Positions 6,630 through 50,110 of a DNA stretch of 57,655 nt are shown here, piece by piece. Source of the DNA: a virus (Duplodnaviria; Caudoviricetes); IMG/VR virus record IMGVR_UViG_3300033144_001394, positions 1 through 57,655 of that record. The stretch is one strand, 5' to 3'. Every line of letters begins with the position of its first letter. Position 1 is the first letter of the stretch. A program made the position numbers and the translations under genes. The notes under the pieces were generated by a model that was given only the letters and a program-made list of their open reading frames with translations, ran no database searches and was not told the DNA's origin.

Positions 6630-7271
6630 ATGGCAACTTATTTACCAGGTGAATCTGGAATATACCAAATAGTAAACTTAGTATCTCAAAAAAGATATAT
6701 AGGTCTTGCTTCAAATATGAAAACTCGTATGAACGGTCATCTATATGACCTTAGAAGAGGCATCCATGCAAATGCTTATTTACAGAAAGCTTGGAATAAG
6801 TATGGCTCTAAAGCTTTTACCTTTAAATGTTTAGAGAAATGCGCTGTGTCTTCTTTACATTTACGTGAGGATTATTGGGTTCGAGTATTGAAGGTTGATC
6901 AACGATACTATGGTTATAATATTAAACCAACTAATCCTGAAGGTTGTTCTCAACACTCTGAAGAAACTAAGTTTAAGATAAGTAGAGACCATAAGTTTAA
7001 AGGTATAAAACCTGGTATATTATGTCTTAAAAAGAGACAAGAATTAGGAGTTACCGAAAGACAAAGAATTGCTATGCGAGAATCGTTAAAGAAGGTTAAC
7101 TTTTCTAAAGTGCATAGAGAAAAACGAGGAAAGAAGGTTATTAATGTTAAGACTCAAGAAGTATATAGTTCTTTAGCAGAAGTTGCTGAATTACTAGATG
7201 TTCATAAAGGTAGTCTTTCACGTAAACTTTCAGGTAAACGTAATAATAATACACATTATAAATATTTATAG
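6630..7271 (+). mobile_element. Free-standing GIY-YIG homing endonuclease with NUMOD3-like and C-terminal HTH-like DNA-binding motifs
   Basis: GIYQIVNL...YIGLAS...R...H...LQKAWNKYG...E...GYNI; HSEETKFKIS; basic C-terminus. Confidence 0.93.
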
Positions 7272-10200: not shown

Positions 10201-10312
10201 AATGATATATTTGATAATGTTAGGCTTATTCGGGATAAGGAGAATGGTGGATTCAAGCTTACAGGCAGAATGTATGATGGTCTTAATAAAGAAGGCAAAG
10301 TTAATTGGATAA
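7274..10312 (+). CDS. Large virion cargo/ejection protein; the true C-terminus is probably in the -1 frame ending at 10470
   Basis: 1012-aa ORF between structural genes. The last ~65 aa are atypical, while the -1 frame is open 10105-10470 with normal composition. Confidence 0.7.
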   Translation: MATYLPGVTDYIPQIQPFKPDYNFYSGALQMKQGQYDASHKQLSNLYGSLLNAPMLRDQNIESRDQFFKAINNDIQKISGLDLSLRENVSAASDLFTQIYDNENIVKDMVYTKNYQSELTRAESFRNCVDIEKCGGAYWEDGVKALNYKADEFRKASDQDALGMQNSKFASYQNVMEKAVKLAKDAGLNIEIDQVNGRYIYTTKNGPNLIRPLSDLFTGVFANDPSIQEYYNAQAYVQRKEWIFGNANQYGGEAGAEQAYADQMIQGMQAMFGQMEEDITFQKDMNTGQKSNLEDRITKEGTIPNSPLARQYQALNEYEQQIDATGKVIENTNGYIKNVQDPALRRAMGANLDKVMASFLLQGDITGAAETLAYKDYSVKMEADPYALENVKQSNRLALAERKFQYDIALEKYKLDPEAWEKKQMEIGDIDQNIPNTVDDVTGASEINLDDDGAAVVYEDMIKEGRNDFSKSERVLIKDYLERVKEQSRGEEFKGIASEDLVAFGEAMINEINTEEKYSTFEEGVTSTIKGQRAEGGLRLKEQWDSLSKADKVKAMHTKDFEQYLTADYGSGLSGTAIDNIFDSQIRPIIPKNEDEKVQREYLGAWNTDTGTLNNLSIIDHKEQVLDELNNWFMSENEDVLGKMKGDTGFLEYKPYLDHYFDENFKPRSAREFAHSYLDANPEQDPADPKVLERLMEVYYGDSYGAIKDSPSIYTWMDSRAREGQGGLSNKLLETTLSLLPNPMARRTRTISGLISELPADEQDAAWEKAEKEYGISNPNMNKFITPTGAGLDVAWRNGFSKHATPEGGAMYLGLMGNDSYAARGINYARVDPIAIKSGATMNVMSFFSDVLGASTGDMRLTLEGPQAEMEDVEHKADLMPIFNQLYQDMFNMASPKEGNRPVLNVTYQDIAGGTRDWTALNIKFNEPYMKEYLGSDANKGIFREKEQLTVLLRVHLKLLLKKIYIGQVNMKLKVIMIYLIMLGLFGIRRMVDSSLQAECMMVLIKKAKLIG

Positions 10313-26972: not shown

Positions 26973-29900
26973 ATGGCAGCAGTATGTCCCAATAAAAATA
27001 CACCAGAGTGGAAATCCTTAGTTAACGAAGTAGGAGAGTTTGAAGCTTATCGAGACTTCTTAGAATACAACGGGGACATTCGAGGTGCTAGAGTCGTTCG
27101 AAAGAAACTTGCTGTCAGGGCTCGTAATATTCCAGAGAGATTACAGAAGGAGCGTACGACCAGCGCAGGGGTTCCTGTTGCTTTAGATATTTTAGAGAAC
27201 TTAGCTAAAGATCTTGCTGCTAAGTTTGGTGATGAGTATGCTTATCGTGTGGAGCCATATCCTAATAAACCTTGGAAAGGGAAGGTAGAGGCAGCCAGTG
27301 TTGAGAATGGTGGTAAACGTACTATTGTTATTAACAGTGCTAAGGCTACTCTTGATACACCACTTCATGAGTTTAGTCATATTCTTTTGGATATGATTAA
27401 GAATGAGAATCAAGTTCTTTATGCTGAGTTACGTCGAACTATTCCTTTAACTAAAGAAGGTCGAGCCGAATTAGCTCAGGTACGTAAGTATTATCCAGAG
27501 CTTAAGGAAGGTGAGGATATTGATGAAACTATTGTTGAATTAATGGGGCGTCATGCCGCAGATCTAATTAGTACTAAATCAAAACTATATACTTTATTAG
27601 AAAGCATATGGAATAGTATTAAAAAGCATATTGCTAAAATTATATCTGAGGGTACAGGACATACAGTTCAGACAGTAGACCTTGAAAAAGATACTACAAT
27701 AGCAGTACTTGCTGAGTTACTTACAATAAAGAATTTAAAGTTTACAGCAGGAACTCAAGTTAAAGAAAAGTTATCTGAAATAGCAGCAAAGAATAATAAG
27801 CAGATTCAAGAAATGGAGAATCAACTTACTATTATGAATTCTTTAGACGTAGATAATCCAGAGACATCTAATGATCCAGAAGCTCTAGTAAGCTATTATT
27901 CCGATTATAGAATACATGCTATTTCTCGAAAGTCTCTTGATGCGATTAGTGATATAGGAAAGGTTTGGCCTATTATTAAAAAGTATCTATCCGCAACTTC
28001 TGATCCAAGTCAGTTTCATCAAGACACAATAAAGCTTACCAATAAAATGATGGAGATGGGTGCTTCACTTACACCTGAAGAAAAGCTTACAACCTTACGT
28101 CTTAATGATGAGTTTGATAATTGGTTTATGGTGTTTAACTCTTTTAAAAATGAGACTAAAGAAAGTTTTATTAAAGATTTAAAAGATGATCCTAAAGCCC
28201 TTTGGCCCGCAGGAAAGTTTATATCATCAGTAAAGAAGCAGACTGATAATTATTCACAACAAACCACTATTGCAGCTATTACAAGTTCTCTTAGAAATGA
28301 TGAAAGATTTATAACTAAGTTATTTCCAAATGTACACAGTACATATTCTATTGAGGAACAGTTAAATGAAAAAACTATTGCCGATATATCTGCAGTATTA
28401 GAATATAACATAGAGGACTTAAAGATCAATATTAGTAAACCAATTCGAGCTAAGGGTGAGTTTGTTATGAATATTGATAATGTAGGAAGAGGTTTTGAAG
28501 GTGATTTTAAAGATGAAACTATTACTGTCAATATTGATTATAAGACAGATGGTAGCCTCTATGTAGGTTTTAAATCATCTGAATGGCTTTATGGAGATCC
28601 GGTTTGGGTTGTAGATTTTGATAAGGATAAAGCTAAAGTAGGTGATAGAGTTATGCTTAAACAACCTCCTGGTGTAGCAGCTGTGCAGAAGAGACATAAG
28701 ATTTATAATCAACCTTTTGGACAAATTGAGGATATATTAGAAGACGGTACTGTTATTATGGAATTGTTGAATATAAATGATCCATATACAATACTCGATA
28801 CATATCTAAAAGATGATTATCAAATAATAGGTGATCAAACTAGTGGTGTTATAGCGATTTCTCCTGATCTACTTAATTCAGTTGTTACTCAGTCGGGTCG
28901 TGCGGCAAGGGTTATGAGGCAAGTTTTAAAAGAGGTTAGTCGGTATGGTTATAATTTTAATTATACAGCTATTACTTTTGCAGCTTCTGAGAGCGATTGG
29001 GGTAATGAGAGTATGATGCGTCAAGCAATATATCAAGGAATGGCTCAACGAATGTTTGGTAAAGATTTTGCATTAGTTTCTCATAATGTAGCAATAAAGT
29101 CACACGCAGAACTTGAGGCTGAGGCTAGAGATAAATGGATTGCTGAAGGTAAAGATCCTGAGAAGTTTAGTATGAAAACTATAGCCGGTTTAATTAAGCG
29201 AGGGGAGATAACTAATATCAATTATGACCTAGATACTATTGTAATTCCTCAGAGTTATCGTGATGGTTTGTTTGTACAAAAGGATGTTTATCAGAAGGAA
29301 CGTATAGATAGTTCTGTACCAGAAGATGCTGTTGATTCTTTGGCAGGTTTATCTACAGCCCAGAATCCTATTAAAGAAAAACCTCTTTCGCCTGAAGAGA
29401 ATAATAAGATTAGGGCTGTTGAGATAGCAAAAAAACTGAGTAATCAGTTGGATGTAGATTATCAGATGGTCACTTCAGATGAAGCTATGGCTATCACGGC
29501 TAATGCAGAGAACCCGTGGAATGGTCAACCTGCTTTCTTCTTTGGAGGTATAGTATATTTTGTTGGAGATAAGTTGGATACGGATCTTGTGTTACATGAG
29601 TTTGCTCATCCACTACTTAGACAAATTAAAGTTACTAACAAAGAATTGTTTGATAACCTTTATATGCAGTTATCTCAGACCAGTGAAGGTCAGAAGATTA
29701 TTAAGATGGTTAGTGAAAAGTATCCTAACCTGACTGAAGATATGGCTAAGGAAGAAGTTTTAGCTCAGGCGTTAGGTGAAGCGGGGGCTCAGCAACTTGA
29801 TGGTTTAAAACCCCAATCTAAGTTTGCAGCATTTATCAAGGAGTTAATGTATCAGATTAAGCAATTATTACGCGGAAATTTCGGTCAGAATATAAAGATA

Positions 29901-32900
29901 TCAAAGCTGAATCCCTCTACTTCGATGAACTCTCTTGCAGAGATTCTAATGAAAGGTGGGAACTTCGACATACAAACAGATCAAATTTCTCAGGAGGATG
30001 TTGTTGCTTATCAACAAGAACAAACGCAATATATAGATGACCTTATTAATGTTGATACCGGTGGTATACAGGCTATGCTTAATAACGCACATAATGCGTC
30101 TTCTCACCAGCTAGAGACACTAATCAAGCAGAAGAAATGGGCTGAGCTAGCCGATCTTCTTACAGATGAGTATGGGTATGGTGATCTTCAGAGGATTAAA
30201 AAGGAGACTGGAGCTTTTCAGAACGCTCTATTAAATGCTGCTAAGGAAGCTAAGAATTCCAGTGAGCATTTACGTAATCAGGCAGGTGCATTGGTGAATG
30301 TTATTTTCCGCCTTGAGAAGATCATGGATAAGATTAACAGACACGTTAAAGATCTTATGACGGATGAGGAGACCGATTCTTTAGAGAACTTAACCAAGCT
30401 TACATACTATGATTCAATAGTTAGTTATTGGGCCCAGTTTGTTGAGGAAGCTAAGGGTGAAATTAACAAGAACGATATTCCACATGACTCAGCTATTGTT
30501 CAATCAATTAATGGTATCAGTACTTTAACAGATCGTTTTCATATCATGAGAGATGAGATTTTTGCTATAGGTGCTAGAGATACTTTATACAATGAGCTCG
30601 AACCTATGGGTCGTGACCTGAAGAAACGTTATGAGTCAATCATAGCTAAGCTTAAGGAAAGAAAAGCTCCTCAAAAGCAGATTGATAAATGGCACATGGA
30701 GTATTATGGAATGACTGAAGAGGAGTTCATAATACTGGACCGTTTACGTAAGGAAAAACGTGCTGGTAAACTTAGACTTAGTGAACAATCAAAATACGAT
30801 GCTTTGATGCTTAAGAATGCACAAGGGATTGAGATCTCTCCAGAGAAGATAGAAGGTCTTCTTAAAGGTCAGATGGGTGATGCCAATTTCTTTAACTCTT
30901 ATCTTGAGGGGTATCTATATAATACAGACCCCGTTATAGGAGGCCTTGCTTTATACGTAAAGAACCACCTGAACCAAGTGATGGTTACAGCGCAGGCTAA
31001 GTTCCAAGACTTTAAGAAAGACATATGGCCTCTGATGGATGCCATTGGAGTTAACCCACATAACATTGGGAAGTTCGGAGAGATGATGGGTTTTGAAGAT
31101 TCTGTTGGTAAGTTTAACAGGGAAACGGGTGAGATTGAAGATCGTAAAGTATGGACCTTACTTAACAAGTTTAAGGACTATCGTTTGGATTTAGCTCGAG
31201 TTAGAGATGCGGTAGATAGAGCTGAGACCGATTATCAAACCTCTGGTAGTGACAAGGACAAACGAGTTCTTATTGCAGCAGTTAATACACGTAAACAACT
31301 ATTACGAGATTATTTCCATCAGGAGTATACGGATAAGTTTTATAATCGAGATCAAGGTCTTGTTAGAAATGATCAGGATACGATTGGTCAAGACGCTACT
31401 TACCTTCGAGATAACATCTATGAAAGAATGAATGCTCTTACGGATAATGCTAAGACAGAATCTGATAATCTAGCATTAACCTCTCAGATGGATAACTTGT
31501 GGTCGGAGTATCATCAGTTACATTCCTTATATACATTAGACGGCAAACCTAAGAATGCTCGCGATACTGAGATTGCTAAGAGATTAAGAGCTTATCGAAA
31601 AGAGTCTAAGCAATATTATGAATGGAAGCTTCGTAAAGGCGTCTTTGAAAATGCCTTGGCTAGATATGAGCAGGAACTGCGTGAGGCTGGTGTTATTGAT
31701 AAAGATATCTTTGATACAGCTCGTGCTGAATGGATCCATAAGAATACACGTTCTGTTATTAAACAGGAATGGTATGATCATAGAGCTGATTTACTTAAGA
31801 AGATTGATAAGATTAATTCTAAGTTATATAAACATCTAACTGCTGCTGAGATAAAAGCCATTAACCAAAATGTAGATTATGAGAAGATCATGGATCTTAC
31901 ATCCCCTTTTAAAGATGATAATAAGCAGACTCGAGCTAATGAGATGAGCATTGAATCTCTTGCTGCTGTAAAAGCATCTGAAGAAGCAATCGCCAAAAAG
32001 AAGAAGAACTATATTACACGAAGCGGTCTTACTCCAATACAATCAGCTAGGCTTTCGGAATTACATAAAATAGATAAGAAGAAACGTACAGTTTCTCAGA
32101 ATCAAGAGATGGCTGATATCTATGCTGATAAAAAGAAGTTCGGCTTAAGTGAAGGAGAAATCTTAGCATTAGATGCTTATTATGCTGAGCTTGCTTCATT
32201 ATCTAATAGAGACGCTAGTGAATATTATGTTGAGGTTATGAACGGTTGGTTATCTATGTTGGATACTACTTACCTGTATGATCAGTATGAAACTAATGAC
32301 ATTACTTCTGAGAGTGCTAATTCTATTCTTGAGCCTAGGATTCTTCAATCTCTTATGGGACAGAATGAAGAGTTTGACAAGTGGTTTAAGGCTAATCATA
32401 TCTTTAAAGAATTTTTCGATAAGACAGCTACACCTCCAGCAATGTCCGGAGCTTGGGAACGTACTAGAGCATGGAGTATAGTTCGACCTAGTGATCCAGC
32501 TCACTATGAATCAATAGAGGTTGTTAATTCTGAAGGTGAAGTGGAAACTATTCCAGGACTTCCTAAGTTAAGTTATTATGCTCGAGTAGTTCGACCTGAG
32601 TTTCGTACTGAACGTATTGTAGGTGAAACTGTTGATAATCAAGGACAGTGGTTACCTAAGACTATTGAACAAAAAGCTAAGGACGGTAAGTACCGTAATC
32701 AAGCATATTACGATATGGCTGAGAATGAGCCAGGTCAGTTTAAAGCATTGATGATGCTTACTAAACATCATCTTGCTAATCAAGAAGGTTTATCTTGGAA
32801 GAACCGTTTATATTTAGATTTTCCTCGTTTTAGAAAGTCTAATCTTGAAACGGTTCAGAGAGGTAATCCGATAACTATTTGGGCTAATCGTGCTAAGGAT

Positions 32901-34733
32901 TTCTTTAGAAAAACTAGAGATGATGCTGAGGATGGTTTCAATTATGATGAAGATGAAGCTAATCTAGTTAGAGCTGATATATTTGATAATGAAGTTACAG
33001 GTGTCCCTATTGCAGGATTATACGATATAGAGAACAACGACGTATCAACTGATATTACTTATACAATGATGAGATATATGTTATCTGCTGAACGTCAAAA
33101 ACAATTGGTTGCTATTTCACCAGTAGCCCGAGCGATACAGAAAGTAGTTAATGATCCTAAACATGAAGTAAAGGATCTAACTAAGAAGCATAGATTCAAT
33201 CTGGTACATAAAGGTATTACAACCTATCTTAATAAGAAGGGTATGAAAGTTCGAGCTAGCGCTGTTAATAACTTTATGGAGCGTGAGTTTGAGGGACAGA
33301 ACATGAAAGGTATTGAAACACCTTGGCTTAACAATGCTGCTAATAAGATGTTTGGTAGAGCCTCATTTGGGTTCTTTGCTTTGAATATTCCTTCAGCTCT
33401 TAAGAACTCATTTGGAGCTAAGTTCCAGGGAATGATTGAAGCTGCTGCAGGTAAGTATATGAATGCTCGATCATTTGCGGCAGGGGATATTTTGGCAGGG
33501 AAAGTTATGATGGAGACGAGTAATCAGATTTATAGACGTACTCCTAAGAGTCTTCATATGCAGATGACTGAGGTATTTGATTTTTCACAAGGAAGATTTG
33601 AGGATCCAACTAAGTTTGGTACAGATCTATCACGTACGATTACTCAAGATATAGCAAGTTTTAGTTGGTTATATAACTTTCGTAAATGGGTAGAATTACA
33701 GGCAACATATCAGATTGGATTTGGTATGTTAAAGTATCAGAAAATAGAGATGGAAGATGGAACTATAATTAATTATGATCAAGCTTGGGAAGTAGTAGAT
33801 GGAAAGATTCAACTTAAGGAAGGTGTTCCAGCGGAATGGGGTATTACTTATAATGAAGAAGGTGAGATTCAAATAGGCAAAGAGTTTATGCGTTGGAAGA
33901 ATAAGATGCAGCAGGTGATGAATAATCTTCAAGGTGCTTATTCTAAGTTTGATCAACCAGAAGCTCAAAGATATTTAGCATTTAGATTTTTGTCTTATTT
34001 ACGTAGATACTTTACTACAATGACGATGAACCGTTGGGGTTACTCAGGTAAATTCTGGAATGCAAAACCTCGTCTTAATCCAGGGCTTGGTGATACACAA
34101 AAAGGTTTCTATGTTGAGTTCCTTAACACATTTAAAAATACAATAACTTCACTTGGTGGTAATCTGCAGTATATGACTAAGGAGGAGAAACGAGCTGCAA
34201 TAAAAGTAATTACTGAGGTAGGTTCTCTTATCTTACTGAACTTTTTAATGGGCGCACTTTTCGGATGGGATGGTGATGATGAGGATCGGTTTAAAAAGTT
34301 ACGTGAGAAAAGTGCATCATTACCATTTCCTTTTGTTTCTGATCAGAAGGGACGTGAGTTTGATGGATGGGGTTTTTTAGAGAATCATGTTCTATTGTTA
34401 TTTATGAATATTCAAGCGGAGAATGAACAATTCTTACCTCTACCTGGAATAGGTTTAGATGATTATACAGCAATGCTTGATTTAAAATCAATAGCATTTG
34501 GACCTACTGTTAAGACGTATCGTCAGATAGTAGATGATCTTTTAGATATAGCGCAGGGTGATGATAGCGCTTATTATAAAAGAGATGTTGGACCTTATAA
34601 TTGGCAACGTAAAGGTGGTGCTAAGATCTGGTCTCATATTGCAAGAACTGTTGGATTAACAGGTTCGTCAATAGCTCCTGAAAAAGCAATTAAAGGTTTA
34701 CAGACATCTAAAGCTGCAGGTAGAGCTGGGTAA
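26973..34733 (+). CDS. Giant virion cargo protein, 2586 aa, with two zincin-like modules and a hydrophobic C-terminal segment
   Basis: HEFSH (27366-27380) and HEFAH (29595-29609) in similar helical contexts; MxxxCPNKNxPEWK start; VITEVGSLILLNFLMGALFGW near the C-terminus. Confidence 0.75.
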   Translation: MAAVCPNKNTPEWKSLVNEVGEFEAYRDFLEYNGDIRGARVVRKKLAVRARNIPERLQKERTTSAGVPVALDILENLAKDLAAKFGDEYAYRVEPYPNKPWKGKVEAASVENGGKRTIVINSAKATLDTPLHEFSHILLDMIKNENQVLYAELRRTIPLTKEGRAELAQVRKYYPELKEGEDIDETIVELMGRHAADLISTKSKLYTLLESIWNSIKKHIAKIISEGTGHTVQTVDLEKDTTIAVLAELLTIKNLKFTAGTQVKEKLSEIAAKNNKQIQEMENQLTIMNSLDVDNPETSNDPEALVSYYSDYRIHAISRKSLDAISDIGKVWPIIKKYLSATSDPSQFHQDTIKLTNKMMEMGASLTPEEKLTTLRLNDEFDNWFMVFNSFKNETKESFIKDLKDDPKALWPAGKFISSVKKQTDNYSQQTTIAAITSSLRNDERFITKLFPNVHSTYSIEEQLNEKTIADISAVLEYNIEDLKINISKPIRAKGEFVMNIDNVGRGFEGDFKDETITVNIDYKTDGSLYVGFKSSEWLYGDPVWVVDFDKDKAKVGDRVMLKQPPGVAAVQKRHKIYNQPFGQIEDILEDGTVIMELLNINDPYTILDTYLKDDYQIIGDQTSGVIAISPDLLNSVVTQSGRAARVMRQVLKEVSRYGYNFNYTAITFAASESDWGNESMMRQAIYQGMAQRMFGKDFALVSHNVAIKSHAELEAEARDKWIAEGKDPEKFSMKTIAGLIKRGEITNINYDLDTIVIPQSYRDGLFVQKDVYQKERIDSSVPEDAVDSLAGLSTAQNPIKEKPLSPEENNKIRAVEIAKKLSNQLDVDYQMVTSDEAMAITANAENPWNGQPAFFFGGIVYFVGDKLDTDLVLHEFAHPLLRQIKVTNKELFDNLYMQLSQTSEGQKIIKMVSEKYPNLTEDMAKEEVLAQALGEAGAQQLDGLKPQSKFAAFIKELMYQIKQLLRGNFGQNIKISKLNPSTSMNSLAEILMKGGNFDIQTDQISQEDVVAYQQEQTQYIDDLINVDTGGIQAMLNNAHNASSHQLETLIKQKKWAELADLLTDEYGYGDLQRIKKETGAFQNALLNAAKEAKNSSEHLRNQAGALVNVIFRLEKIMDKINRHVKDLMTDEETDSLENLTKLTYYDSIVSYWAQFVEEAKGEINKNDIPHDSAIVQSINGISTLTDRFHIMRDEIFAIGARDTLYNELEPMGRDLKKRYESIIAKLKERKAPQKQIDKWHMEYYGMTEEEFIILDRLRKEKRAGKLRLSEQSKYDALMLKNAQGIEISPEKIEGLLKGQMGDANFFNSYLEGYLYNTDPVIGGLALYVKNHLNQVMVTAQAKFQDFKKDIWPLMDAIGVNPHNIGKFGEMMGFEDSVGKFNRETGEIEDRKVWTLLNKFKDYRLDLARVRDAVDRAETDYQTSGSDKDKRVLIAAVNTRKQLLRDYFHQEYTDKFYNRDQGLVRNDQDTIGQDATYLRDNIYERMNALTDNAKTESDNLALTSQMDNLWSEYHQLHSLYTLDGKPKNARDTEIAKRLRAYRKESKQYYEWKLRKGVFENALARYEQELREAGVIDKDIFDTARAEWIHKNTRSVIKQEWYDHRADLLKKIDKINSKLYKHLTAAEIKAINQNVDYEKIMDLTSPFKDDNKQTRANEMSIESLAAVKASEEAIAKKKKNYITRSGLTPIQSARLSELHKIDKKKRTVSQNQEMADIYADKKKFGLSEGEILALDAYYAELASLSNRDASEYYVEVMNGWLSMLDTTYLYDQYETNDITSESANSILEPRILQSLMGQNEEFDKWFKANHIFKEFFDKTATPPAMSGAWERTRAWSIVRPSDPAHYESIEVVNSEGEVETIPGLPKLSYYARVVRPEFRTERIVGETVDNQGQWLPKTIEQKAKDGKYRNQAYYDMAENEPGQFKALMMLTKHHLANQEGLSWKNRLYLDFPRFRKSNLETVQRGNPITIWANRAKDFFRKTRDDAEDGFNYDEDEANLVRADIFDNEVTGVPIAGLYDIENNDVSTDITYTMMRYMLSAERQKQLVAISPVARAIQKVVNDPKHEVKDLTKKHRFNLVHKGITTYLNKKGMKVRASAVNNFMEREFEGQNMKGIETPWLNNAANKMFGRASFGFFALNIPSALKNSFGAKFQGMIEAAAGKYMNARSFAAGDILAGKVMMETSNQIYRRTPKSLHMQMTEVFDFSQGRFEDPTKFGTDLSRTITQDIASFSWLYNFRKWVELQATYQIGFGMLKYQKIEMEDGTIINYDQAWEVVDGKIQLKEGVPAEWGITYNEEGEIQIGKEFMRWKNKMQQVMNNLQGAYSKFDQPEAQRYLAFRFLSYLRRYFTTMTMNRWGYSGKFWNAKPRLNPGLGDTQKGFYVEFLNTFKNTITSLGGNLQYMTKEEKRAAIKVITEVGSLILLNFLMGALFGWDGDDEDRFKKLREKSASLPFPFVSDQKGREFDGWGFLENHVLLLFMNIQAENEQFLPLPGIGLDDYTAMLDLKSIAFGPTVKTYRQIVDDLLDIAQGDDSAYYKRDVGPYNWQRKGGAKIWSHIARTVGLTGSSIAPEKAIKGLQTSKAAGRAG

Positions 34734-39949: not shown

Positions 39950-40999
39950 TTACAGAAGTTTTGTTCCTGTAATAAATTCATAAGGTAGACTGAAGTCTTT
40001 ATTATCGTAGTGATACTGTATCTCATCCATTTTCTTCCACATCTTAGCTGTCCACATAGTCAGACTCGCGTTGCTTACAGCCCACGGGTATATCTGATTA
40101 AACTTATCAACAACTATAAATCGCACTTCAATTTTCCAAGTATCATCTATGACATCCTTAAGGAAGTCCATTACAAGCGTTAAATAAACGGCTGCTTGTA
40201 GCCAGTAGTCCCACATCTCAACTGAGTCGGGGAAATCGGTTACGGACTTTCCGGTTGTCTTTAGATCATTAATACGTATCAGTTTATTTGTTACATCTAC
40301 GGTTACGTTATCTAACACTCCTTTGAGTCCGAAAGGTCTGTCTTTCAGTTCCATCTTCCAAGGCATCTCATTATATACCTGGAAGTTTACTTGATCAGAC
40401 TCTCTGTCCATTCCGAGTAGCTCACGCACCTGTGCATGTTCTTTTAATAACTCTGCTCTTCGACTACATTTATCTAATGTTCCGCTATCAACTATCTCAC
40501 GTCCGTCTTGCGACTGTACTAGAAAGTTGAAATAATTTGTGTATTTCGATTCAAGAATCTTCTCGACTCTCTTTTCATCACCAGTTTTCCAAGGTGCTTT
40601 TTTATCGTCCTTGAGTGACTGGTGTAAATTAATTTCTTGTAGGATCTCCAGTATCTCATCTGGAAAGTCTATAAGTTCTAGATCTGGATCGGCATCACGT
40701 TTTTTCCAAATCTCGAATACTTGTGTTACAACATCTGCTCCACCTCCTGATGGAATTCCTTCTGGAGATACTATAAACTTGTCATCAAAGTTCAACCCAT
40801 CGAGTAGGAGATAATGGATTACCGTTCCCTCGATGAGGTAGGTTTCCCGTTTATCATCCCGCTGACCTAACACATAATCCTTGTAGAAGTTGCGTGGTGC
40901 CTCGAGTAGCTTTCGCTTGCTGCTGTAACTGAAGTAAAAAGGTTTGCTGTAGAACTCAGCTTCTAAGTCGGCTTGTGCTACATCAATTGTGTTTAACAT
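39950..40999 (-). CDS. PD-(D/E)XK exonuclease (RecB/Cas4/exonuclease VIII-like); likely start at 40999
   Basis: FSYSS, GTVIH, E...KGVLD...INDLKTT, YWLQAAVY. Confidence 0.85.
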   Translation of the reverse strand: MLNTIDVAQADLEAEFYSKPFYFSYSSKRKLLEAPRNFYKDYVLGQRDDKRETYLIEGTVIHYLLLDGLNFDDKFIVSPEGIPSGGGADVVTQVFEIWKKRDADPDLELIDFPDEILEILQEINLHQSLKDDKKAPWKTGDEKRVEKILESKYTNYFNFLVQSQDGREIVDSGTLDKCSRRAELLKEHAQVRELLGMDRESDQVNFQVYNEMPWKMELKDRPFGLKGVLDNVTVDVTNKLIRINDLKTTGKSVTDFPDSVEMWDYWLQAAVYLTLVMDFLKDVIDDTWKIEVRFIVVDKFNQIYPWAVSNASLTMWTAKMWKKMDEIQYHYDNKDFSLPYEFITGTKLL

Positions 41000-41009
41000 A
41001 CAGTTCGTA

Positions 41010-42200
41010 TTATTGGTTAATAAATGCGACATCTCCGTCATCTGGGATGTCAATTTCTCCAGCATCCTCAATGATATCTTCATCATCTAACTGGCTGAGG
41101 TATTCTTCTTTTAGCGCATAACCTGGTATAACATATTTGTGTGTACTGTGTAATTCGTACTCTTTTGTAATGGGAAATAGGGCACTTAACTTTTGGAAAT
41201 TACTTTGGGTAAGCTTGCCTAGACGCTCTAAGATACTGATGAGTTTGTCTAGTTCGAGATTCTTTTTAAGAATTTTAACATCAAGCTCGAAGTAGTATAA
41301 TAAACTTTTGAAATTTATGTGGCTTGCTCCCTTCATTGGGGCCATTTCTTTACCATACTTTTGTAGTAGGCACAACAAATATATACAACTTTTATCAAAA
41401 TTGCAATTCGCCATCAACTCCATTACAGTAGATAAGTTATCCTTATCATTTGCTCCAGCCATCAGACACATCTCCTCATACCGCTTATCATCTAGGATGA
41501 GACAGTCTGCATTTACTAATTTAAGCATACAGTTTTGATCATATAGATCACACGTGAGGCGATCGAATATTGAGTCAGCCTGTGACATAAACAAATTAGT
41601 ACGTTCAGGATATACCATCTTCACATTGTCTGATAAACGGTACCCACTAAAATCCAAGCCACGTTGACCTCGGCTATTAGGTTTCCCTAATGGTGGTGGG
41701 TTAGTACTGTTTGGAATTTTAAGTCCTACATGACGTATCTTTTCTACACAGTCATTATGCATGAGGATTAGATCTTCACAGTTGTGTGATAAAGAAGATA
41801 CCTTCACCGTAAACGGGTGGTCTTCTCCATAACAAGTACGGATCCACTTTATGATGGACTTTACATTGTAAGGATACATTCTGGTTATTGAGTCAAAGCC
41901 ATCTTCACTACCCTCCAGTGTTTCAGGAGAGATGAATGCAGCTGTTGCATACTCAGGTTTTATTGTGATGTTGAAACGTTCACGTACCTTGAATCTAGGT
42001 ACACTACATCCAGGAAAGAAGTAAGGTCTTTCTGCTTGACCTGGTGTCCAGTCATCTTTTACATCAAGACTTTCTTTAATGTCTTTATTTAGCATTCCTC
42101 TACGCATTTTGACCTTGAGAGGCGTTGCTTCTATAATAGGTCTTCCGGGTGCACTCTCATCACAGTTTACCTCGATGATCATATAAGTTTTTAGTTTCAT
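41010..42200 (-). CDS. Hypothetical protein of the MoxR/VWA cluster (396 aa)
   Basis: Long ORF directly downstream of the MoxR gene; MELMANCN motif. Confidence 0.65.
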   Translation of the reverse strand: MKLKTYMIIEVNCDESAPGRPIIEATPLKVKMRRGMLNKDIKESLDVKDDWTPGQAERPYFFPGCSVPRFKVRERFNITIKPEYATAAFISPETLEGSEDGFDSITRMYPYNVKSIIKWIRTCYGEDHPFTVKVSSLSHNCEDLILMHNDCVEKIRHVGLKIPNSTNPPPLGKPNSRGQRGLDFSGYRLSDNVKMVYPERTNLFMSQADSIFDRLTCDLYDQNCMLKLVNADCLILDDKRYEEMCLMAGANDKDNLSTVMELMANCNFDKSCIYLLCLLQKYGKEMAPMKGASHINFKSLLYYFELDVKILKKNLELDKLISILERLGKLTQSNFQKLSALFPITKEYELHSTHKYVIPGYALKEEYLSQLDDEDIIEDAGEIDIPDDGDVAFINQ

Positions 42201-44782: not shown

Positions 44783-45213
44783 AGTTTAATATCTTTTCCT
44801 GGTTTATACTTCTCAGTGAGTTTGATCTCAACCTTTTCTAAGAAGTCATAGCCGTAGCTTCTGAGTACTTCTAATAGGTGATTACCAAATTCATCCATGA
44901 AGTATTGCATCTGTTGTACATTAACATTATGTGTAGCTGCTACTTCGATTATGAATTGATAGGTAAGATTCGGGTTATCCCCTAGTACGTCCTTTGACAT
45001 CAATGTCTTTGTTGCATTAGGAGCATGCTGTTCCCACATGTCCCAACCAACTAGGCCTTTCTTCTTCAGTAGAATAAAGAACACTAGGTTCTCTAACACA
45101 TCATAGTTATCTATGATATTGAGTGTTAGTATTTGATCCTCCTCTGAGGATTTGAGCTGCGATATTAGATTCTCTAATTTCTCAGCTGTCATTAGCTTTT
45201 CCGATGTTTCCAT
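44779..45213 (-). CDS. Hypothetical protein
   Basis: 144-aa ORF abutting both neighbours. Confidence 0.65.
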   Translation of the reverse strand: METSEKLMTAEKLENLISQLKSSEEDQILTLNIIDNYDVLENLVFFILLKKKGLVGWDMWEQHAPNATKTLMSKDVLGDNPNLTYQFIIEVAATHNVNVQQMQYFMDEFGNHLLEVLRSYGYDFLEKVEIKLTEKYKPGKDIKL

Positions 45214-45555
45214 TTAGTCTTCAATTTTCATTGTTTTTAACATCCAACGCTTAGGTTTCTCGAGGTTATCAATCCACTCCTTAGCTGTTGGTATATAATT
45301 ATTACAGTCTTCTTTGACATGTTGTTCTCCAACATATCTGGTATAGACTGTCTTACCATCTGAGTTCACAAAAGACTCTCCGAATATTGATTCACATTCA
45401 AAGATGCCTTCACTATGGTGTCTAAACATTCTATGTTTACTGTGTGCAACCCATGCCTTTGTTGCATCAAACCAATTGTGAATATCTATGTAGTCCTCAA
45501 CTTTACCTCCGAATTTTCGGACTGAGGACTTAGCATGTATTAAAGGATGTGCCAT
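45214..45555 (-). CDS. DUF6915-like protein
   Basis: MAHPLIHAKSSVRKFGGKVEDYIDIHNWFD...HRMFRHHSEGI...EQHVKED. Confidence 0.75.
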   Translation of the reverse strand: MAHPLIHAKSSVRKFGGKVEDYIDIHNWFDATKAWVAHSKHRMFRHHSEGIFECESIFGESFVNSDGKTVYTRYVGEQHVKEDCNNYIPTAKEWIDNLEKPKRWMLKTMKIED

Positions 45556-46025
45556 TAGATTTCTATTACACCTCCTCCAGATACATTCCAGGTACTATAT
45601 TCAGGTTCATAATCATCATCATCCCAGTTAGCTTCACCTTCATCCTCACCGTTGATCTCATAATGTACATAATAGGTAAAGGTTTTAAGGTTTAAAGCTA
45701 GATAGCCACCTCCTCCTTCATTATTCCACCAATCATATTCAGTATAGTTACCTTCAATAAGGTTATCTAATGTATTCCAGAAATCATCTGAAGTCATAGG
45801 TGCTTTAGCAGCATCTTCTATAAATTCACTCGAGCATAATTCATACGCAAGATCTCCATCTTCATTCATCATTTCTTCTGATACAAGATGTGTATCTGTA
45901 ATCTCACCACTGTCACCACCTCCATGGAATTCAAAGATGGCATGCGTGATATTACTGTCTGATAATATGTCAAGACCTATTGCTAGATCTGCACGTTCTG
46001 CTTTCATTATATGTTTTAGTTCCAT
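45555..46025 (-). CDS. Acidic DUF6878-like protein
   Basis: FHGGGDSG and DWWNNEGGGG motifs; adjacent to the DUF6915-like gene. Confidence 0.6.
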   Translation of the reverse strand: MELKHIMKAERADLAIGLDILSDSNITHAIFEFHGGGDSGEITDTHLVSEEMMNEDGDLAYELCSSEFIEDAAKAPMTSDDFWNTLDNLIEGNYTEYDWWNNEGGGGYLALNLKTFTYYVHYEINGEDEGEANWDDDDYEPEYSTWNVSGGGVIEI

Positions 46026-46550
46026 TTATCTAGGAAATTTACGCCGTAAATATTCGGCTATTAATAATGCGTCAACCAGTCCATCATGTGGAACGGATGA
46101 CTTCTCTGTCATTAGCAGGTTTACTTTTGGGAACAGTCTCTTAGCTGCAATGAGTGCCATCTTCTTGGTATCCTTTGCGCTCTTGGATCCCGTCTTGAGG
46201 ATCACCGTCTGTCCCTGAAATATTTCCGCCTGCCATTTCTTAGCGGGTACCATAGTGTACTGTATAGAATTAGCTATGCACATCATTTCAAATGCGCCTG
46301 CCTGGTATCCCATGGAGAAGGCTGTCTTCTTTGAGGATCCGAAGATCACACCAAGTTTTTCAAAACCTACCATTCCATTAAACCCTTCGTACTGAGAGAT
46401 ACCCTGATTGAACTTATGCCAATCAATCTCCTTACCTACCATAGGCATCTTGCCTCGTGATATCTCACTGCCATCTTCTCCCATTATGTAGTAAGCACCC
46501 AACTTACCGATGTCAATACCTATGTAGAGCCGTTGTTTTTTCTGTTCCAT
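46026..46550 (-). CDS. ruvC: RuvC-like Holliday junction resolvase
   Basis: YIGIDIG, GFE, AFSMG, PAKKWQ, HDGLVDALLIA. Confidence 0.88.
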   Translation of the reverse strand: MEQKKQRLYIGIDIGKLGAYYIMGEDGSEISRGKMPMVGKEIDWHKFNQGISQYEGFNGMVGFEKLGVIFGSSKKTAFSMGYQAGAFEMMCIANSIQYTMVPAKKWQAEIFQGQTVILKTGSKSAKDTKKMALIAAKRLFPKVNLLMTEKSSVPHDGLVDALLIAEYLRRKFPR

Positions 46551-47244
46551 ATTTATCTTTATTAATTTGTGTATTCATACCACCTTTAGTCAGATTATCT
46601 TTAGCCCAAAGTGGTTGTAAGTTACTTAACTGCCAACAAGCTATGAACTCTAAGTCCGTTTTTAGAGTAAAATCAAAAGCAGATACTGGTTTGATATGAT
46701 CTATATGCCATTCACCATAGTTATCCCATGTCATACCTTCTTCAAAGAGAGCCTCGATATGAGATCTAAGTACATTAACGGTGTAACCAAAAGGTTCTAG
46801 CCAGTTATTTGCGGTCTTATCAGAATATTTTGTAATTATTCTTGAGAAGGCTCTAGTATACTGCTTATTTAATTTATACTGAGACAAAGACATTTTGTTT
46901 CTACCTTTATGCTTATAGCAACAGTCTTTTGAACAGTACTTACCTGAATGTTTTTTCGTATCAACGGCATGTTTGGGCACAGTGAATTCTGTTTTACATT
47001 CAAGACAACTGAAACCTAACCCACCACCTTTATAGTTAGGGTTATTACTTCCAGTATAGTCACCACGACTATTAAGGAATTTGGTTTTAGTTTCTAAAGT
47101 ATATGTTCTATTCTTGTTACCATTGGCAACTCGACAAGAGTTAGTGCAAAACTTCTTCTTTAGGTCACTGGCACGGTTGATATCAAAACTATGATTGCAA
47201 TAGTTACAGATTCTTTCTATAGGATAATTGTGTTTCTTATACAT
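46513..47244 (-). mobile_element. Free-standing HNH homing endonuclease with two CxxC...CxxxC zinc ribbons
   Basis: CNYC...FCTNSC; NNPNYKGG; CLEC...YCSKDC; GMTWDNYGEWHIDHIKP...NLQPLWAKDNLTK. Confidence 0.9.
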
Positions 47245-47245
47245 A

Positions 47246-47270
47246 ACTTATATTTTATGTAAATATAAGT
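47246..47270 (-). promoter_or_regulatory. Perfect 10-bp hairpin ending 1 nt before the HNH start codon, containing a TATATTTA (Bacteroidota -7-like) element
   Basis: acttatattt (47246-47255), 5-nt loop, aaatataagt (47261-47270). Confidence 0.65.
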
Positions 47271-47272
47271 AT

Positions 47273-47305
47273 TTATCCTATATCTATTCCGATATATTTT
47301 CTCAT
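47273..47305 (-). pseudogene. Orphan RuvC 5' end (mini-ORF MRKYIGIDIG*)
   Basis: ATG AGA AAA TAT ATC GGA ATA GAT ATA GGA TAA; its ATG overlaps the TGA of the upstream ORF; same YIGIDIG peptide as the ruvC N-terminus. Confidence 0.85.
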
Positions 47306-47532
47306 AGTTGTTTAATTATGTCTTTTGGATGTTCATGATTTCGAGTTAAGCTGCTGCCATTTGACAACCAAGCCATGACACTTAAGGCTCTTCCCGGAAA
47401 CTCATCTACATCTGCTTCAAATTTATAATTGGTACCGTTATTAGCTAATCTTAGTGGTGATGTAACCAGACCGTTTCTTAGCTCATATCTTTCTCCAACT
47501 GAGAGTACTACACTTTCTTCTTCTGTATTCAT
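47302..47532 (-). CDS. Small hypothetical protein
   Basis: 76-aa ORF with ATGA coupling at both ends; VGERYELRNG motif. Confidence 0.65.
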   Translation of the reverse strand: MNTEEESVVLSVGERYELRNGLVTSPLRLANNGTNYKFEADVDEFPGRALSVMAWLSNGSSLTRNHEHPKDIIKQL

Positions 47533-48533
47533 CTGTTTGGTTCTTCAGGCTTAAGCGCCTTGGTTAGTATTGGAAACAGGAATATTCTGGTGTTCTTAAT
47601 ACCATGTTCCTTCACGCATTCTGCGAGATCCTTTTCTACTTTCAAGTGAGCCTTGGGTATACCATATATCTCTTGATACTTGTCCATAGATCTAATACCG
47701 GCCTGATCATTATCAAAGAGCGTACAGATTCCCTGATAGGTTTTCTTGTACTCATTAATCTGAGCTTCTGGTATTATAATATTCTCACTGTCAGGTGCTA
47801 TACATTCAGCGTTAGACACATTCAATGTATCAAACGTCATCATATCTTTAAGACCACTACAGATAACTAGGTAAGGCCTGTCGCCTTGTAGTTGTCCGGA
47901 TCCTTGAACATATGGTTTCACCTTCAGATATTTTCTGTGTCCTGATAAGGGTTGGTAGATTTTATACAATTTCTTTTCCTCTGTGAAGAATCCATATATC
48001 TGGGATCCCTTTACCACGAACTCACTTGTTGGGTCATCTGGTCTACACATGGTATATTCGGATATAGGAACTACTTTTCTAAAAGCTAGTCCACTAGATC
48101 CTACCTGATACGCTTTCCAATAAGTAGAATCAATTATAGTCCATTTACGTGGTTTGATTCCTACTATTTCATAGCGTTCCTGGATCTTCATTATCCTTTC
48201 TCGATATGCATCGGGATTAGATAGCACTTCGCTATTGTAGTCCTCTATGATCATATGAGCAGCTTCTCCTCTGGTAGTCAGGTCATACATCGCCTTAACC
48301 AGGCTAGTACCATCTCCTGAATTATCAGTAGAAAAGTCCTTGAAATAATAGAAACCTTTGTCACGAGATAGGAAGACGAACAACGACGGGTTTTTATCTG
48401 CTGTGTTGAATACAGATTTGATTTGTATGTCCTGTCCAGTAAGTCTCTCTCCTAATTTCAAGTAATGTTCGAATACCCACTCTCTTGGTACATCAGACAG
48501 CCGAGCTGCCATTGCTTTAGTTCTTAGTCCCAT
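47529..48533 (-). CDS. DNA primase (TOPRIM), crAss-like
   Basis: Degenerate N-terminal zinc-binding region (SVFN..DKNPS...FKDFS); KIYQP; KD; APDSEN; LFDNDQAG; KDLAE. Confidence 0.85.
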   Translation of the reverse strand: MGLRTKAMAARLSDVPREWVFEHYLKLGERLTGQDIQIKSVFNTADKNPSLFVFLSRDKGFYYFKDFSTDNSGDGTSLVKAMYDLTTRGEAAHMIIEDYNSEVLSNPDAYRERIMKIQERYEIVGIKPRKWTIIDSTYWKAYQVGSSGLAFRKVVPISEYTMCRPDDPTSEFVVKGSQIYGFFTEEKKLYKIYQPLSGHRKYLKVKPYVQGSGQLQGDRPYLVICSGLKDMMTFDTLNVSNAECIAPDSENIIIPEAQINEYKKTYQGICTLFDNDQAGIRSMDKYQEIYGIPKAHLKVEKDLAECVKEHGIKNTRIFLFPILTKALKPEEPNR

Positions 48534-48543
48534 ATATGTGAAT

Positions 48544-48573
48544 AAAAAAAGGAGAGCTATAGAGCCCTCCTTT
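48544..48573 (-). terminator. Intrinsic terminator after the putative ssb gene
   Basis: - strand aaaggagggct-ctat-agctctcc-ttttttt. Confidence 0.8.
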
Positions 48574-48593
48574 CAAGTTTGTATTATAGTATA

Positions 48594-49316
48594 TTACAAC
48601 GTGAACTCTTCACTTGCCTTACCATCTACGGCTCCTTCACCTTTTGCTTCTGGTGTATCACCCTCTGCTTCAAAACCATTATCCTCTGCAGGACTTAGTC
48701 TCTCTAGCATCTTCTCATCCTCAGCGTCAAACTGAAGAATTCTAGCAGGTGATGCTGTAAGTTCTTCGTAAGGCACTCCTGCTTTACTGAACTTAGGTAA
48801 GAATAAGTCAAGTCCCGTGTATGTATTTTGTTTCATATACTCACGAGCGCAGATACAAAAGTTCATTGGCTTATCTTTAGCCACGTCATCTGCGTTAAAT
48901 GCCTCAACAAGCTGCTCGATCGTGTCGTGCTTATTATCTTGGTCATCAAACCATTTCTCATTATCTAATGCGATACATAAGTTCTTAATAGCTTTCATGA
49001 TATCCATATCACGAGATACTTTAATGCCACTTTTCGTAGTACCGTCTTTATAAGGCCAGCGACTAGTCTTTACTCGACCTACCTGTCCTTTATAACGTGG
49101 TCCAGACTTCTTCTCAGCGTCTATAAAGAATCCTTCAAAACCTTCGCCCATATCTGACCCTTCTAAGTGAAGTAGTACAAAATACCCTTTCTCCTTGGTC
49201 ATATAAGGTGGTTGGTCTAGCTCTATTCTTCCGATAGTAGCTATTGTATTGCCTGCTTGCAACGTTTTCGGTGTACCTCCGCCGGTCTTTACATCTTTAG
49301 TTCCTAATTTTCCCAT
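48594..49316 (-). CDS. Putative single-stranded DNA-binding protein
   Basis: Lies between the AAA_24 and primase genes; beta-rich body; acidic tail ending EEFTL. Confidence 0.55.
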   Translation of the reverse strand: MGKLGTKDVKTGGGTPKTLQAGNTIATIGRIELDQPPYMTKEKGYFVLLHLEGSDMGEGFEGFFIDAEKKSGPRYKGQVGRVKTSRWPYKDGTTKSGIKVSRDMDIMKAIKNLCIALDNEKWFDDQDNKHDTIEQLVEAFNADDVAKDKPMNFCICAREYMKQNTYTGLDLFLPKFSKAGVPYEELTASPARILQFDAEDEKMLERLSPAEDNGFEAEGDTPEAKGEGAVDGKASEEFTL

Positions 49317-49333: not shown

Positions 49334-50110
49334 TTAATCAATATAGATTTTGTCCCAGTGGGTAACCAGGCCATCATCCTTCATTTCCGATATTACTATT
49401 TCCGCATTTCTTAGGTGAGCAGGTCGTGCTCCACAGGTTGTATCATCTGCCGTCTTGAAGGTCATGATATTCTGATTACCTTTTCGGTAAATATAACCAA
49501 TCGCATCTGATTGAGCAGCTGTCGTACGTTTAATGTTCCCTGTTAAATTTAAGTCCATTACATTGAACTCAGCACCATCTTTGTCTAGATATATATCTTT
49601 GACATGGCACACTTGAATGACTCTAGGAGCCCAAGTTTTAATATAACCGATCATCTTTGTAAAGGCCTCTCTTAGAAACGCATATCCAGCTCCATTAGGT
49701 AAGTTGAGAATACTTCCGTATTGTGCCTTACCACTAGCGGTGGATAGCTTACTTGTCTTACCATCTTTCTTAAACCAGTTCTTTCCCATAGGTGTTCGAG
49801 AGTATATTATCTCGCCGTAAGGGATACAGAACTGCTCAAGTGCCGTCATAGTATCTATCGCGACATAATCGTAGGGATGACCAAGCTTGGCGATCTCTTT
49901 CCCTATCGCGTTAATGTCTTCTACCGAAGAGGCTTTCACCTTTAAGGCATCTACATAATCAGATCCTTCCTCCAGGTCAAGTATAAGACAGTTGTCTAGC
50001 TGAGCTAGCAACTCCGTCTTTCCTACCTTGGGCTTGGAAAAGATAATTAAGTTCTTTGGGCTCATATAAGCCGCTTTTACCTTTTGTATAGGTAATTTGA
50101 TTTCCGTCAT
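49334..50110 (-). CDS. AAA_24 / Sak4-like ATPase (single-strand annealing recombinase family)
   Basis: FSKPKVGKT, ILDLEEG, AIDT, LPNGAGY, SDAIGY, CGAR. Confidence 0.85.
   Translation of the reverse strand: MTEIKLPIQKVKAAYMSPKNLIIFSKPKVGKTELLAQLDNCLILDLEEGSDYVDALKVKASSVEDINAIGKEIAKLGHPYDYVAIDTMTALEQFCIPYGEIIYSRTPMGKNWFKKDGKTSKLSTASGKAQYGSILNLPNGAGYAFLREAFTKMIGYIKTWAPRVIQVCHVKDIYLDKDGAEFNVMDLNLTGNIKRTTAAQSDAIGYIYRKGNQNIMTFKTADDTTCGARPAHLRNAEIVISEMKDDGLVTHWDKIYID

Follow-up and report, generated by a model that had tools for sequence, protein, structure and literature searches.

A probable intron-less homing-endonuclease element in the first codons of a phage RuvC-like resolvase gene

The locus analysed here raises the question of how a nuclease gene can stand within the first codons of a conserved gene and leave that gene complete. 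It lies in a stretch of 57,655 nucleotides (nt) of a tailed phage (Duplodnaviria; Caudoviricetes), positions 1 to 57,655 of the IMG/VR record IMGVR_UViG_3300033144_001394; this whole stretch is called the window below, and the record is a virus fragment about 48% complete. Reading of the window's minus strand gives, in order, a 10-codon orphan that repeats the start of a ruvC gene, an HNH-type endonuclease gene and a complete RuvC-like resolvase gene. We consider it probable that these parts belong to a mobile, intron-less homing-endonuclease element seated in the first codons of the resolvase gene and, by analogy, just as probable that this element is built like the mORFs of fungal mitochondria and the WHO elements of yeasts, mirrored to the 5' end of its target.

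The ruvC locus with and without its HNH-type gene

The orphan is a very small open reading frame (ORF), MRKYIGIDIG* (47305-47273; all features of this locus are on the minus strand), which corresponds to the normal ruvC start of the family ended by a stop codon. Its ATG overlaps, as ATGA, the TGA of an upstream ORF of 76 amino acids (aa; 47532-47302) that has no family match. After a 28-nt spacer between the stop of the orphan and the next start codon (47272-47245), which is the only non-coding DNA of the insert, comes the free-standing HNH-type gene (243 aa, 47244-46513), whose predicted product carries two FCS-like zinc fingers ahead of an HNH domain at its C-terminus. The RuvC-like Holliday junction resolvase gene (174 aa, 46550-46026) begins MEQKKQRLYIGIDIGK. 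Its ATG and an eight-codon extension, MEQKKQRL (46550-46527), lie within the tail of the HNH gene, the ATG being placed inside the K-Y-G codons of that tail, and the 5' end of the one gene overlaps the 3' end of the other by 38 nt. Because this new start reads into the resident codons, the RuvC product would be made in one piece with no splicing, and the resolvase gene as such is intact. Its working YIGIDIG copy (46526-46506) and the orphan copy inside the mini-ORF (47296-47276) differ at the third base of every one of the seven codons and at no other position. An earlier, sequence-only reading of this DNA had described the ATGA-coupled mini-ORF, the start of an intact ruvC inside the HNH 3' end and the seven third-base differences, and all three descriptions were borne out when the strand was read again and the two copies were compared codon by codon. 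The guanine-plus-cytosine (GC) content of the HNH gene is 0.34, as against 0.40-0.43 for its neighbours (0.434 for ruvC).

Comparison of ruvC loci with and without the HNH gene, which the sequence-only reading had proposed, indicates what the start of this gene looks like elsewhere. Ten related loci (L001 plus nine metagenome loci, comprising seven distinct sequences with ruvC 62-77% identical) have a single ruvC start of the MRKYIGIDIGK type or a near variant, and the HNH gene is present in none of them; an HNH-free relative carrying both copies of the motif, which the earlier reading had named as contrary evidence, was found at 0 of the 10 loci. In L001 (ruvC 75% identical) the order primase, small ORF, ruvC, DUF6878, DUF6915 is that of the window, there is no HNH gene, and ruvC begins MRKYIGIDIGKLGAYYIMGEDGSEI, which equals the orphan joined to the window's ruvC from K16. 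When viral_contigs was searched with a back-translated MRKYIGIDIGK pattern, L001's contig was the sole match. The short MRKY-type start is found in 61 of the 66 ruvC protein clusters that are closest; of the others, two have a long extension of the ME.K.QR.Y type (MERKTQRRY in P0031 and MENEKHQRKY in P0037, which are similar to the extension in the window), one has a longer called start and two are truncated. Clusters P0061 and P0066 start only after the motif (MGEDGSEI.. and MLNEDGPE..), and may represent either cut contigs or ruvC genes that are interrupted after the motif without a restart.

Closer relatives were found in four public metagenome runs (X1 to X4), all of which were compared as contigs; none of the 21 runs listed for the locus is an RNA run. 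The HNH gene is present at 100% identity in X1. A contig of 2,906 nt from X2 covers 45200-46526 (40 mismatches) and 47551-48600 (65 mismatches), and at the joint between 46526 and 47551 it has 106 other letters in place of 1,024 nt of the window; contigs from X3 end at these same two places, and the X2 and X3 contigs are about 97-99% identical to the window. Within the stretch that these near-identical phages lack (46527-47550, 1,024 nt) are the tail of the primase gene, then the 76-aa ORF, the orphan and the HNH gene, and finally the new ruvC start. A contig from X4 aligns from 46523 downward, that is, from the second codon of the working copy, and in its loose end an ORF terminating in ...DIIKQL* overlaps the MRKY start of a ruvC that has no HNH gene. 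The 76-aa ORF is absent from X2 and X3, and the ORF with the ending ...DIIKQL* in X4 is a variant of it. To judge from these contig ends, X4 carries the empty site for the HNH gene alone, and measured against a site of that type the window's insert would be about 770 nt long (46524-47293); since TAYAT is present at either end, its borders can be placed only to within about 5 nt.

Insertion polymorphism is therefore documented at this locus, and the sequences indicate that the 5' end of ruvC has received the HNH gene by insertion. The earlier proposal that an HNH endonuclease splits ruvC at its catalytic motif was right about the insertion at the 5' end and about the orphan start left behind, and has to be amended in its geometry: relative to the nearest empty site the junction falls at about codon 4/5, just before the motif, which is duplicated and not split.

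The layout also bears on the alternative that the interruption is a group I intron or some other spliced element, an arrangement in which the orphan, as exon 1, would be spliced to codon 16 of ruvC at the RNA level. A point in its favour is that JGI labels relatives of the window's GIY-YIG gene, which is discussed below, as 'group I intron endonuclease'. However, the HNH ORF takes up all but 28 of the 767 nt that would separate the two exons, no Rfam intron was matched at E <= 1 within 45000-49000, and codon 16 is preceded by a complete in-frame N-terminus with its own ATG, for which an intron would have no need; on these three grounds splicing is very unlikely, and we give it hardly any weight. 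An intein was also considered and rejected, as a stop follows the orphan and the HNH gene is in a different frame from ruvC. A scan for promoter- and terminator-like sites found no more of them at the locus than expected by chance.

The identity of the target is given by sequence families and by a structural relative. The 174-aa protein matches PHROG 1770, Holliday junction resolvase (7.5e-20), and a profile of 24 homologues matches the solved RuvC-fold resolvase MOC1 (6kvn) with an E-value of 1.9e-11 over positions 3-163. Residues G11, D13 (the aspartate of GID), G15 and E64 are invariant among the homologues and D160 is at least 90% conserved; D13, E64 and D160 are presumably catalytic, a role that we assign by homology. 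Pfam returned nothing meaningful for this protein at E <= 0.01 or at E <= 1, and a phmmer search of the PDB returned nothing relevant.

The 243-aa protein matches PHROG 1035, 'endonuclease VII' (3.6e-10), and phrog_28061 (5.8e-11). Across 16 homologues the pattern WH.DH...N.QPLW...N is invariant (W179, H180, D182, H183, N208, L209, Q210, P211, L212, W213 and N217) and two CxxC...C...C fingers are kept; we take the pattern to be an HNH (His-Me finger) motif. An AlphaFold2 model of the protein (pLDDT 83.4, pTM 0.55) was compared with known structures in a wide VIA-align search, in which the top HNH row, 4h9d (Z 4.2, root-mean-square deviation (rmsd) 6.3, 92 aligned), and that of the phage GVE2 HNH protein, 5h0o (Z 3.9, rmsd 3.2, 69 aligned), are both below the level that stands out, and the rows for an FCS zinc finger (2w0t, Z 4.2) and for further HNH structures (Z 2-3.3) are likewise low. 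Foldseek gave 0 matches in pdb for the whole model at E <= 0.001, Pfam gave nothing at E <= 1 for the window's protein, PF01844 (the Pfam HNH family) was matched by 1 of the 16 homologues at a weak E of 0.085, and neither PDB sequence (phmmer) nor profile searches gave an HNH match. On its motif and its PHROG match, we call the protein HNH-type. There is no second HNH copy in the record, and blastn against phage records recovered the HNH core only (2-5% of the query at 71-86% identity, in 16 records) and no related phage. Contig depth at the HNH core (46682-46795) is far above that of its surroundings (36 in X1 and 220 in X3), with many loose ends on both sides, and both of these metagenome runs contain many other genes with this core.

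Recurrence of the design in two nuclease lineages

Relatives of the HNH protein numbered 453, and 80 loci that contain them were fetched. In one of the 80, L004, ruvC adjoins the HNH relative, and the other 79 have no ruvC beside it. L004 comes from an unrelated phage (HNH protein of 210 aa, 42% identical; ruvC 29% identical, with the start MKYFIGIDNG), and the design recurs there: 36 nt separate the HNH ATG from an orphan, ..YLGIDI.., which comes directly after a terminator-like hairpin and has no start codon of its own, and the ruvC ATG lies inside the HNH tail K-K-Y-E. All five relatives of L004's ruvC (5/5) are without HNH. The tail ...N...YG recurs in 7 of the 16 HNH homologues, and in both of the cases seen at the DNA level it holds the ruvC ATG. 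In another HNH homologue, P0124, the protein itself begins MPQPFNPKKSDIKFYIGIDIG (...KFYIGIDIG), fused in frame to the first zinc finger.

These counts address the possibility that the HNH protein is a domesticated partner of RuvC in a two-nuclease module and that the orphan is an accident. The overlap of the two genes, which is found in the window and again in L004, fits such a module; a partner that is missing from all ten related loci and from the five relatives of L004's ruvC, and that has no ruvC beside it in 79 of the 80 fetched loci, does not, and we regard domestication as extremely improbable.

The orphans of the window and of L004 have in common a 12-mer, GGAATAGATATA (3 of 2000 shuffles reach 12 nt), which is placed at -46 from the HNH ATG in the window and at -36 in L004. 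The shared 12-mer and the similar distances could mean that the orphan is kept for a function, either as a translated leader that sets HNH expression by re-initiation after its stop, 28 nt ahead of the HNH ATG, or as a DNA site bound by the HNH protein, and this would be compatible with a mobile element. Such a function would also suit the intact ATGA coupling to the upstream gene and the fact that the peptide is unbroken though not part of ruvC. On the other hand, the orphan of L004 is start-less and follows a hairpin, and that of P0124 is part of the HNH protein, so no expression logic is common to these cases, and a recent insertion would equally explain why the orphan in the window is intact; we therefore think a retained function unlikely.

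A different arrangement is seen in L025 (2140-2901), where a C-terminus is present on both sides of an HNH relative of 238 aa. FPELM* closes the 537-aa gene that lies upstream and is found again at the HNH 3' end, with all four variable codons and the stop differing between the copies. L025 is possibly a 3'-end, mORF-like version of the design.

A second case is present in the window itself, where, on the plus strand, a GIY-YIG endonuclease gene (213 aa, 6630-7271; Pfam PF01541, 8.1e-7) opens with the first seven codons, MATYLPG, of its target, a 1012-aa gene of no named family (7274-10312) that restarts with a second MATYLPG. The two copies are spelt differently at five of six variable codons, and the GC content of the nuclease gene is lower than that of its target, as it is for HNH and ruvC. 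At least 66 of 108 GIY-YIG homologues begin MATY, and 131 of 150 representatives of the target family start M[AS][TSN][YF][IL]. The nuclease starts M[AS]TY[IL]Q in nine related loci, and the target restarts M[AS]TY[IL].GVTD in all eight related loci in which downstream DNA is present (five of them distinct). On these counts the GIY-YIG arrangement is widespread and stable, with a clade of nucleases that is fused to the first codons of its target. When the N-terminal 400 residues of the 1012-aa target were used to search viral_contigs, no relative came to light.

The sequence-only reading had gone further and suggested that two unrelated nuclease families use the same duplicate-and-recode strategy in one genome, as a general and under-described homing mode. 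The GIY-YIG case is real, as the MATYLPG fusion and the restart at 7274 attest; the recoding part is not supported, for reasons given in the next section. Recurrence is plausible, in that both lineages show the layout in other phages, with few cases at the DNA level on the HNH side. As to the mode being under-described, literature searches outside subscription journals, with look-ups inside PMC10448857 and PMC12724721, brought up no account from phages of a homing endonuclease gene (HEG) flanked by a gene start in duplicate, and the mORF and WHO precedents qualify the claim.

Origin of the two spellings

A short peptide repeat is not by itself rare. Within 3 kb, on one strand and in any frame, the window has three repeats of seven residues, and in 60 dinucleotide-preserving shuffles of it such repeats average 0.6 and number 3 at most. 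Of the three observed, two stand exactly at the starts of genes flanking nuclease genes, and it is this position, together with the comparison with relatives, that makes the repeat meaningful, not rarity alone. The third, RLVLILL (1400-1420 and 1676-1696, plus strand), may be chance.

Alignment ends of the HNH-free contigs give information on which of the two YIGIDIG copies belongs to the lineage. The X2 and X3 alignments reach the first base of the working copy (46526) and that of X4 reaches its second codon (46523); had every third base been mismatched, an aligner would not have carried on through these codons, and the working copy is therefore probably spelt in the lineage's own way, as it is in the near-identical relatives without HNH. 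From these ends and from the mismatch counts, the working copy is best read as native in its motif codons and the orphan as a foreign-spelt copy. In addition, the GGT ATT GAC of the working copy is also present in the HNH-free relative L084, and the spelling of the orphan resembles that of the distant relatives L087, L090 and L001. The copies differ by seven synonymous and no non-synonymous changes, which implies that both evolved as working ruvC genes, in different lineages. The junctions of the insert are thus chimeric, and the difference in spelling would reflect two origins and not recoding after insertion: the 3' part of the orphan would have come with the element, and the MEQKKQRL extension alone would be new on the working ruvC.

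On the earlier reading's 'duplicate and recode' version, the N-terminus would instead have been duplicated in place and the working copy then recoded at every wobble base, a change that might protect it from the nuclease or prevent deletion between the repeats. If YIGIDIG were spelt twice independently from the phage's codon usage, the copies would differ at all seven codons with P = 0.012, and over the HNH and GIY-YIG cases together 12 of 13 codons differ (P = 0.007); in L100, a GIY-YIG relative, one of six codons is identical between the copies, and selection against near-identical direct repeats could bias which insertions survive. These observations would agree with recoding, but the HNH-free X2, X3 and X4 contigs, which are near-identical to the window, align up to or into the working spelling and so carry it, and L084 has GGT ATT GAC without HNH. 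Moreover, the L004 copies share 10 of 11 nt at the motif core, three of four codons are identical in L101, and seven independent silent mutations within 21 nt, beside flanks that are 97-98% identical, are implausible. The recoded start was accordingly not borne out, and we think it very unlikely.

Homing model, precedents and implications

If the locus is a mobile element, its left end would consist of the foreign-spelt IGIDIG codons running into a stop, its middle of the HNH gene with its own start, and its right end of the conserved HNH tail, which holds a new ATG and eight codons that read into the resident YIGIDIG. The old start, still coupled translationally to the upstream gene, would yield the 10-residue orphan only, and RuvC would be made whole from the new start with no splicing. 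In line with the model put forward for WHO elements (PMC7282813), we infer that empty alleles are cleaved and repaired from a donor: the HNH enzyme would nick or cut HNH-free ruvC alleles near codons 4-12, and the break would be repaired from an HNH-carrying co-infecting genome, in which the orphan copy would pair with the left broken end and the working copy with the right one. On its left side the product would have the recipient's own ATGAGAAAATAT joined to the remainder of the donor's orphan, and on its right side the recipient's own motif codons preceded by the donor's new start; such repair predicts exactly the chimera seen in the window. Immunity would follow from the interrupted site, and the architecture would have had its first origin in an earlier host, one with a ruvC of the orphan's spelling.

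The phage encodes proteins that may assist in this process. An exonuclease VIII-like protein (39950-41086, minus strand; PHROG 412, 1.4e-16) and a Sak4-like annealing protein (49334-50110, minus strand; PHROG 124, 2.4e-20) are part of a replication module that also includes a primase, a DNA polymerase and a Dda-like helicase. Annealing and exonuclease proteins of these kinds can recombine over short homology, and the phage's own recombination system could serve short-homology repair during homing.

Precedents for the design are found in fungi. The mORFs form gene hybrids in fungal mitochondria, in atp6 of Allomyces macrogynus and in atp6, atp9, cox2 and nad3 of Glomus sp. (PMC3630166). Like the element in the window, those described in that account consist of an endonuclease ORF inside a coding gene near its end, with the duplicated end flanking the ORF, copies that differ mostly synonymously and have different origins, and neither intron nor intein (PMC3630166). 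Unlike them, the phage element is not in an organelle, lies at the 5' end and so supplies a start codon rather than a stop, and duplicates only 7-10 codons. WHO elements home into FBA1, an essential gene, in Torulaspora and Lachancea yeasts, where a stray fragment of the gene serves as homology arm and resistance comes from the end that has been replaced (Coughlan et al., 2020; PMC7282813). The likeness to WHO extends to the replacement of one gene end at each integration, the stray fragment as arm, chimeric alleles and the lack of splicing, whereas WHO proteins are intein-like LAGLIDADG-zinc finger proteins that are meiotic and use the 3' end, and the present elements encode HNH and GIY-YIG proteins, belong to a phage and use the 5' end (PMC7282813). 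Cleavage and resistance have been demonstrated for WHO (PMC7282813), whereas here both are predictions from sequence. The layout common to mORFs and WHO, an endonuclease ORF in a gene end with one working and one orphan copy, is found in both the HNH and the GIY-YIG case, and free GIY genes have been described as duplicated together with the atp9 N-terminus (PMC7487136).

Free-standing homing endonucleases of T4-type phages, such as SegB and MobE, provide examples of intron-less homing (PMC2988022, PMC2790892, PMC2330249). As far as those accounts describe them, they resemble the present elements in being free-standing HNH or GIY-YIG genes beside or in a conserved gene, in their patchy occurrence, and in a presumed spread by break repair with co-conversion of flanks. 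SegF and SegG are reportedly further members of this group, and, to our knowledge, free-standing endonuclease genes of the T4 type lie between genes, interrupt no reading frame and carry no replacement start. Aeromonas phage Aeh1, with its nrdA and mobE, is said to be a case in which an intron-less HEG does split a gene. A HEG inside a coding gene without an intron is also mentioned in PMC10448857, and there, as here, the insert brings a new stop and a new start, but that gene is left as two working protein pieces, whereas the protein here stays in one piece because a short N-terminal part is duplicated. We regard the element in the window as a real feature, ordinary in kind as a selfish element and of a design not yet described for phages.

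Several points weigh against this account of the locus. Runs X2 to X4 are metagenomes, and the pieces compared may stem from different strains; the 106 letters at the X2/X3 joint are about 76 more than a simple primase end plus MRK requires; and the native spelling is deduced from alignment ends and mismatch counts. HNH membership is drawn from a PHROG match, a motif and structural rows of low Z, and the nearest full-length homologue is 51-56% identical, so cleavage by the HNH protein would be a prediction of its sequence. GGAATAGATATA is made of codons common in AT-rich phages, and convergence could explain why both orphans contain it; in L004 an N-terminal extension is lacking and the motif copies are similarly spelt, so that neither feature is universal. 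In mORFs and WHO the working copy is foreign, whereas in the window only its first eight codons are, and it is the orphan's motif that is foreign. Finally, an exact flanking 5-mer peptide is shared in 2 of the 80 HNH-relative loci, compared with 0-6 (mean about 2.3) in 20 mismatched-pair controls; this exact test is too strict, as it missed L004, and on inspection the match in L025 looks real and that in L006 does not.

A broader proposal can be made only tentatively, and we would put it at somewhat below an even chance: that phage homing endonucleases have, besides introns and inteins, a general third way into essential genes, which is a spare gene start. We are equally tentative about its structural counterpart, that the element is bracketed by the most conserved first codons of its target in two copies of different spelling. 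If both are true, the bracketing copies would be portable homology arms for jumps between target genes of unrelated phages (such as ruvC genes that are 29% identical), they would let the element borrow or replace the translation start of its target, and the design would have been invented twice independently, once in the HNH/ruvC element and once in the GIY-YIG 'MATY' clade, which is widespread. The locus itself shows how a selfish nuclease gene can occupy conserved phage coding sequence without an intron, an intein or protein splitting, and it explains why annotation pipelines come upon, and miscall, short 'orphan' ORFs and odd extensions at N-termini. Precise natural pairs of filled and empty sites could also be used to map the target specificity of a new zinc-finger HNH protein and of the GIY-YIG clade. 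Should the duplicated motif act as a homology arm, it would provide a route for gene flow between very distant phages and a mechanistic link of these phage elements with mitochondrial mORFs and yeast WHO/HO.

The junction between primase and ruvC (47302-47560 on the minus strand of the window; 3599-3979 in L001; also L084, L087, L089, L090 and L092) is a hot spot in its own right. In most relatives the primase ends ...KQL* or ...KQV* and is coupled to ruvC directly by ATGA; at this junction L001 has an ORF of 126 aa and the window has the 76-aa ORF. The primase of the window ends ...KPEEPNR*, the 76-aa ORF ends ...KQL* like the primase of relatives, and the 76-aa ORF may itself be an insertion into the last codons of the primase. 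A second X2 contig matches the 3' part of this ORF (47308-47380) and diverges from 47308, which points to a relative in another context.

Elsewhere in the window, a neighbouring ORF of 1910 aa (10482-16214) has no PHROG match, and two very long ORFs are present on the plus strand, at 16215-26969 (3584 aa) and 26973-34733 (2586 aa).

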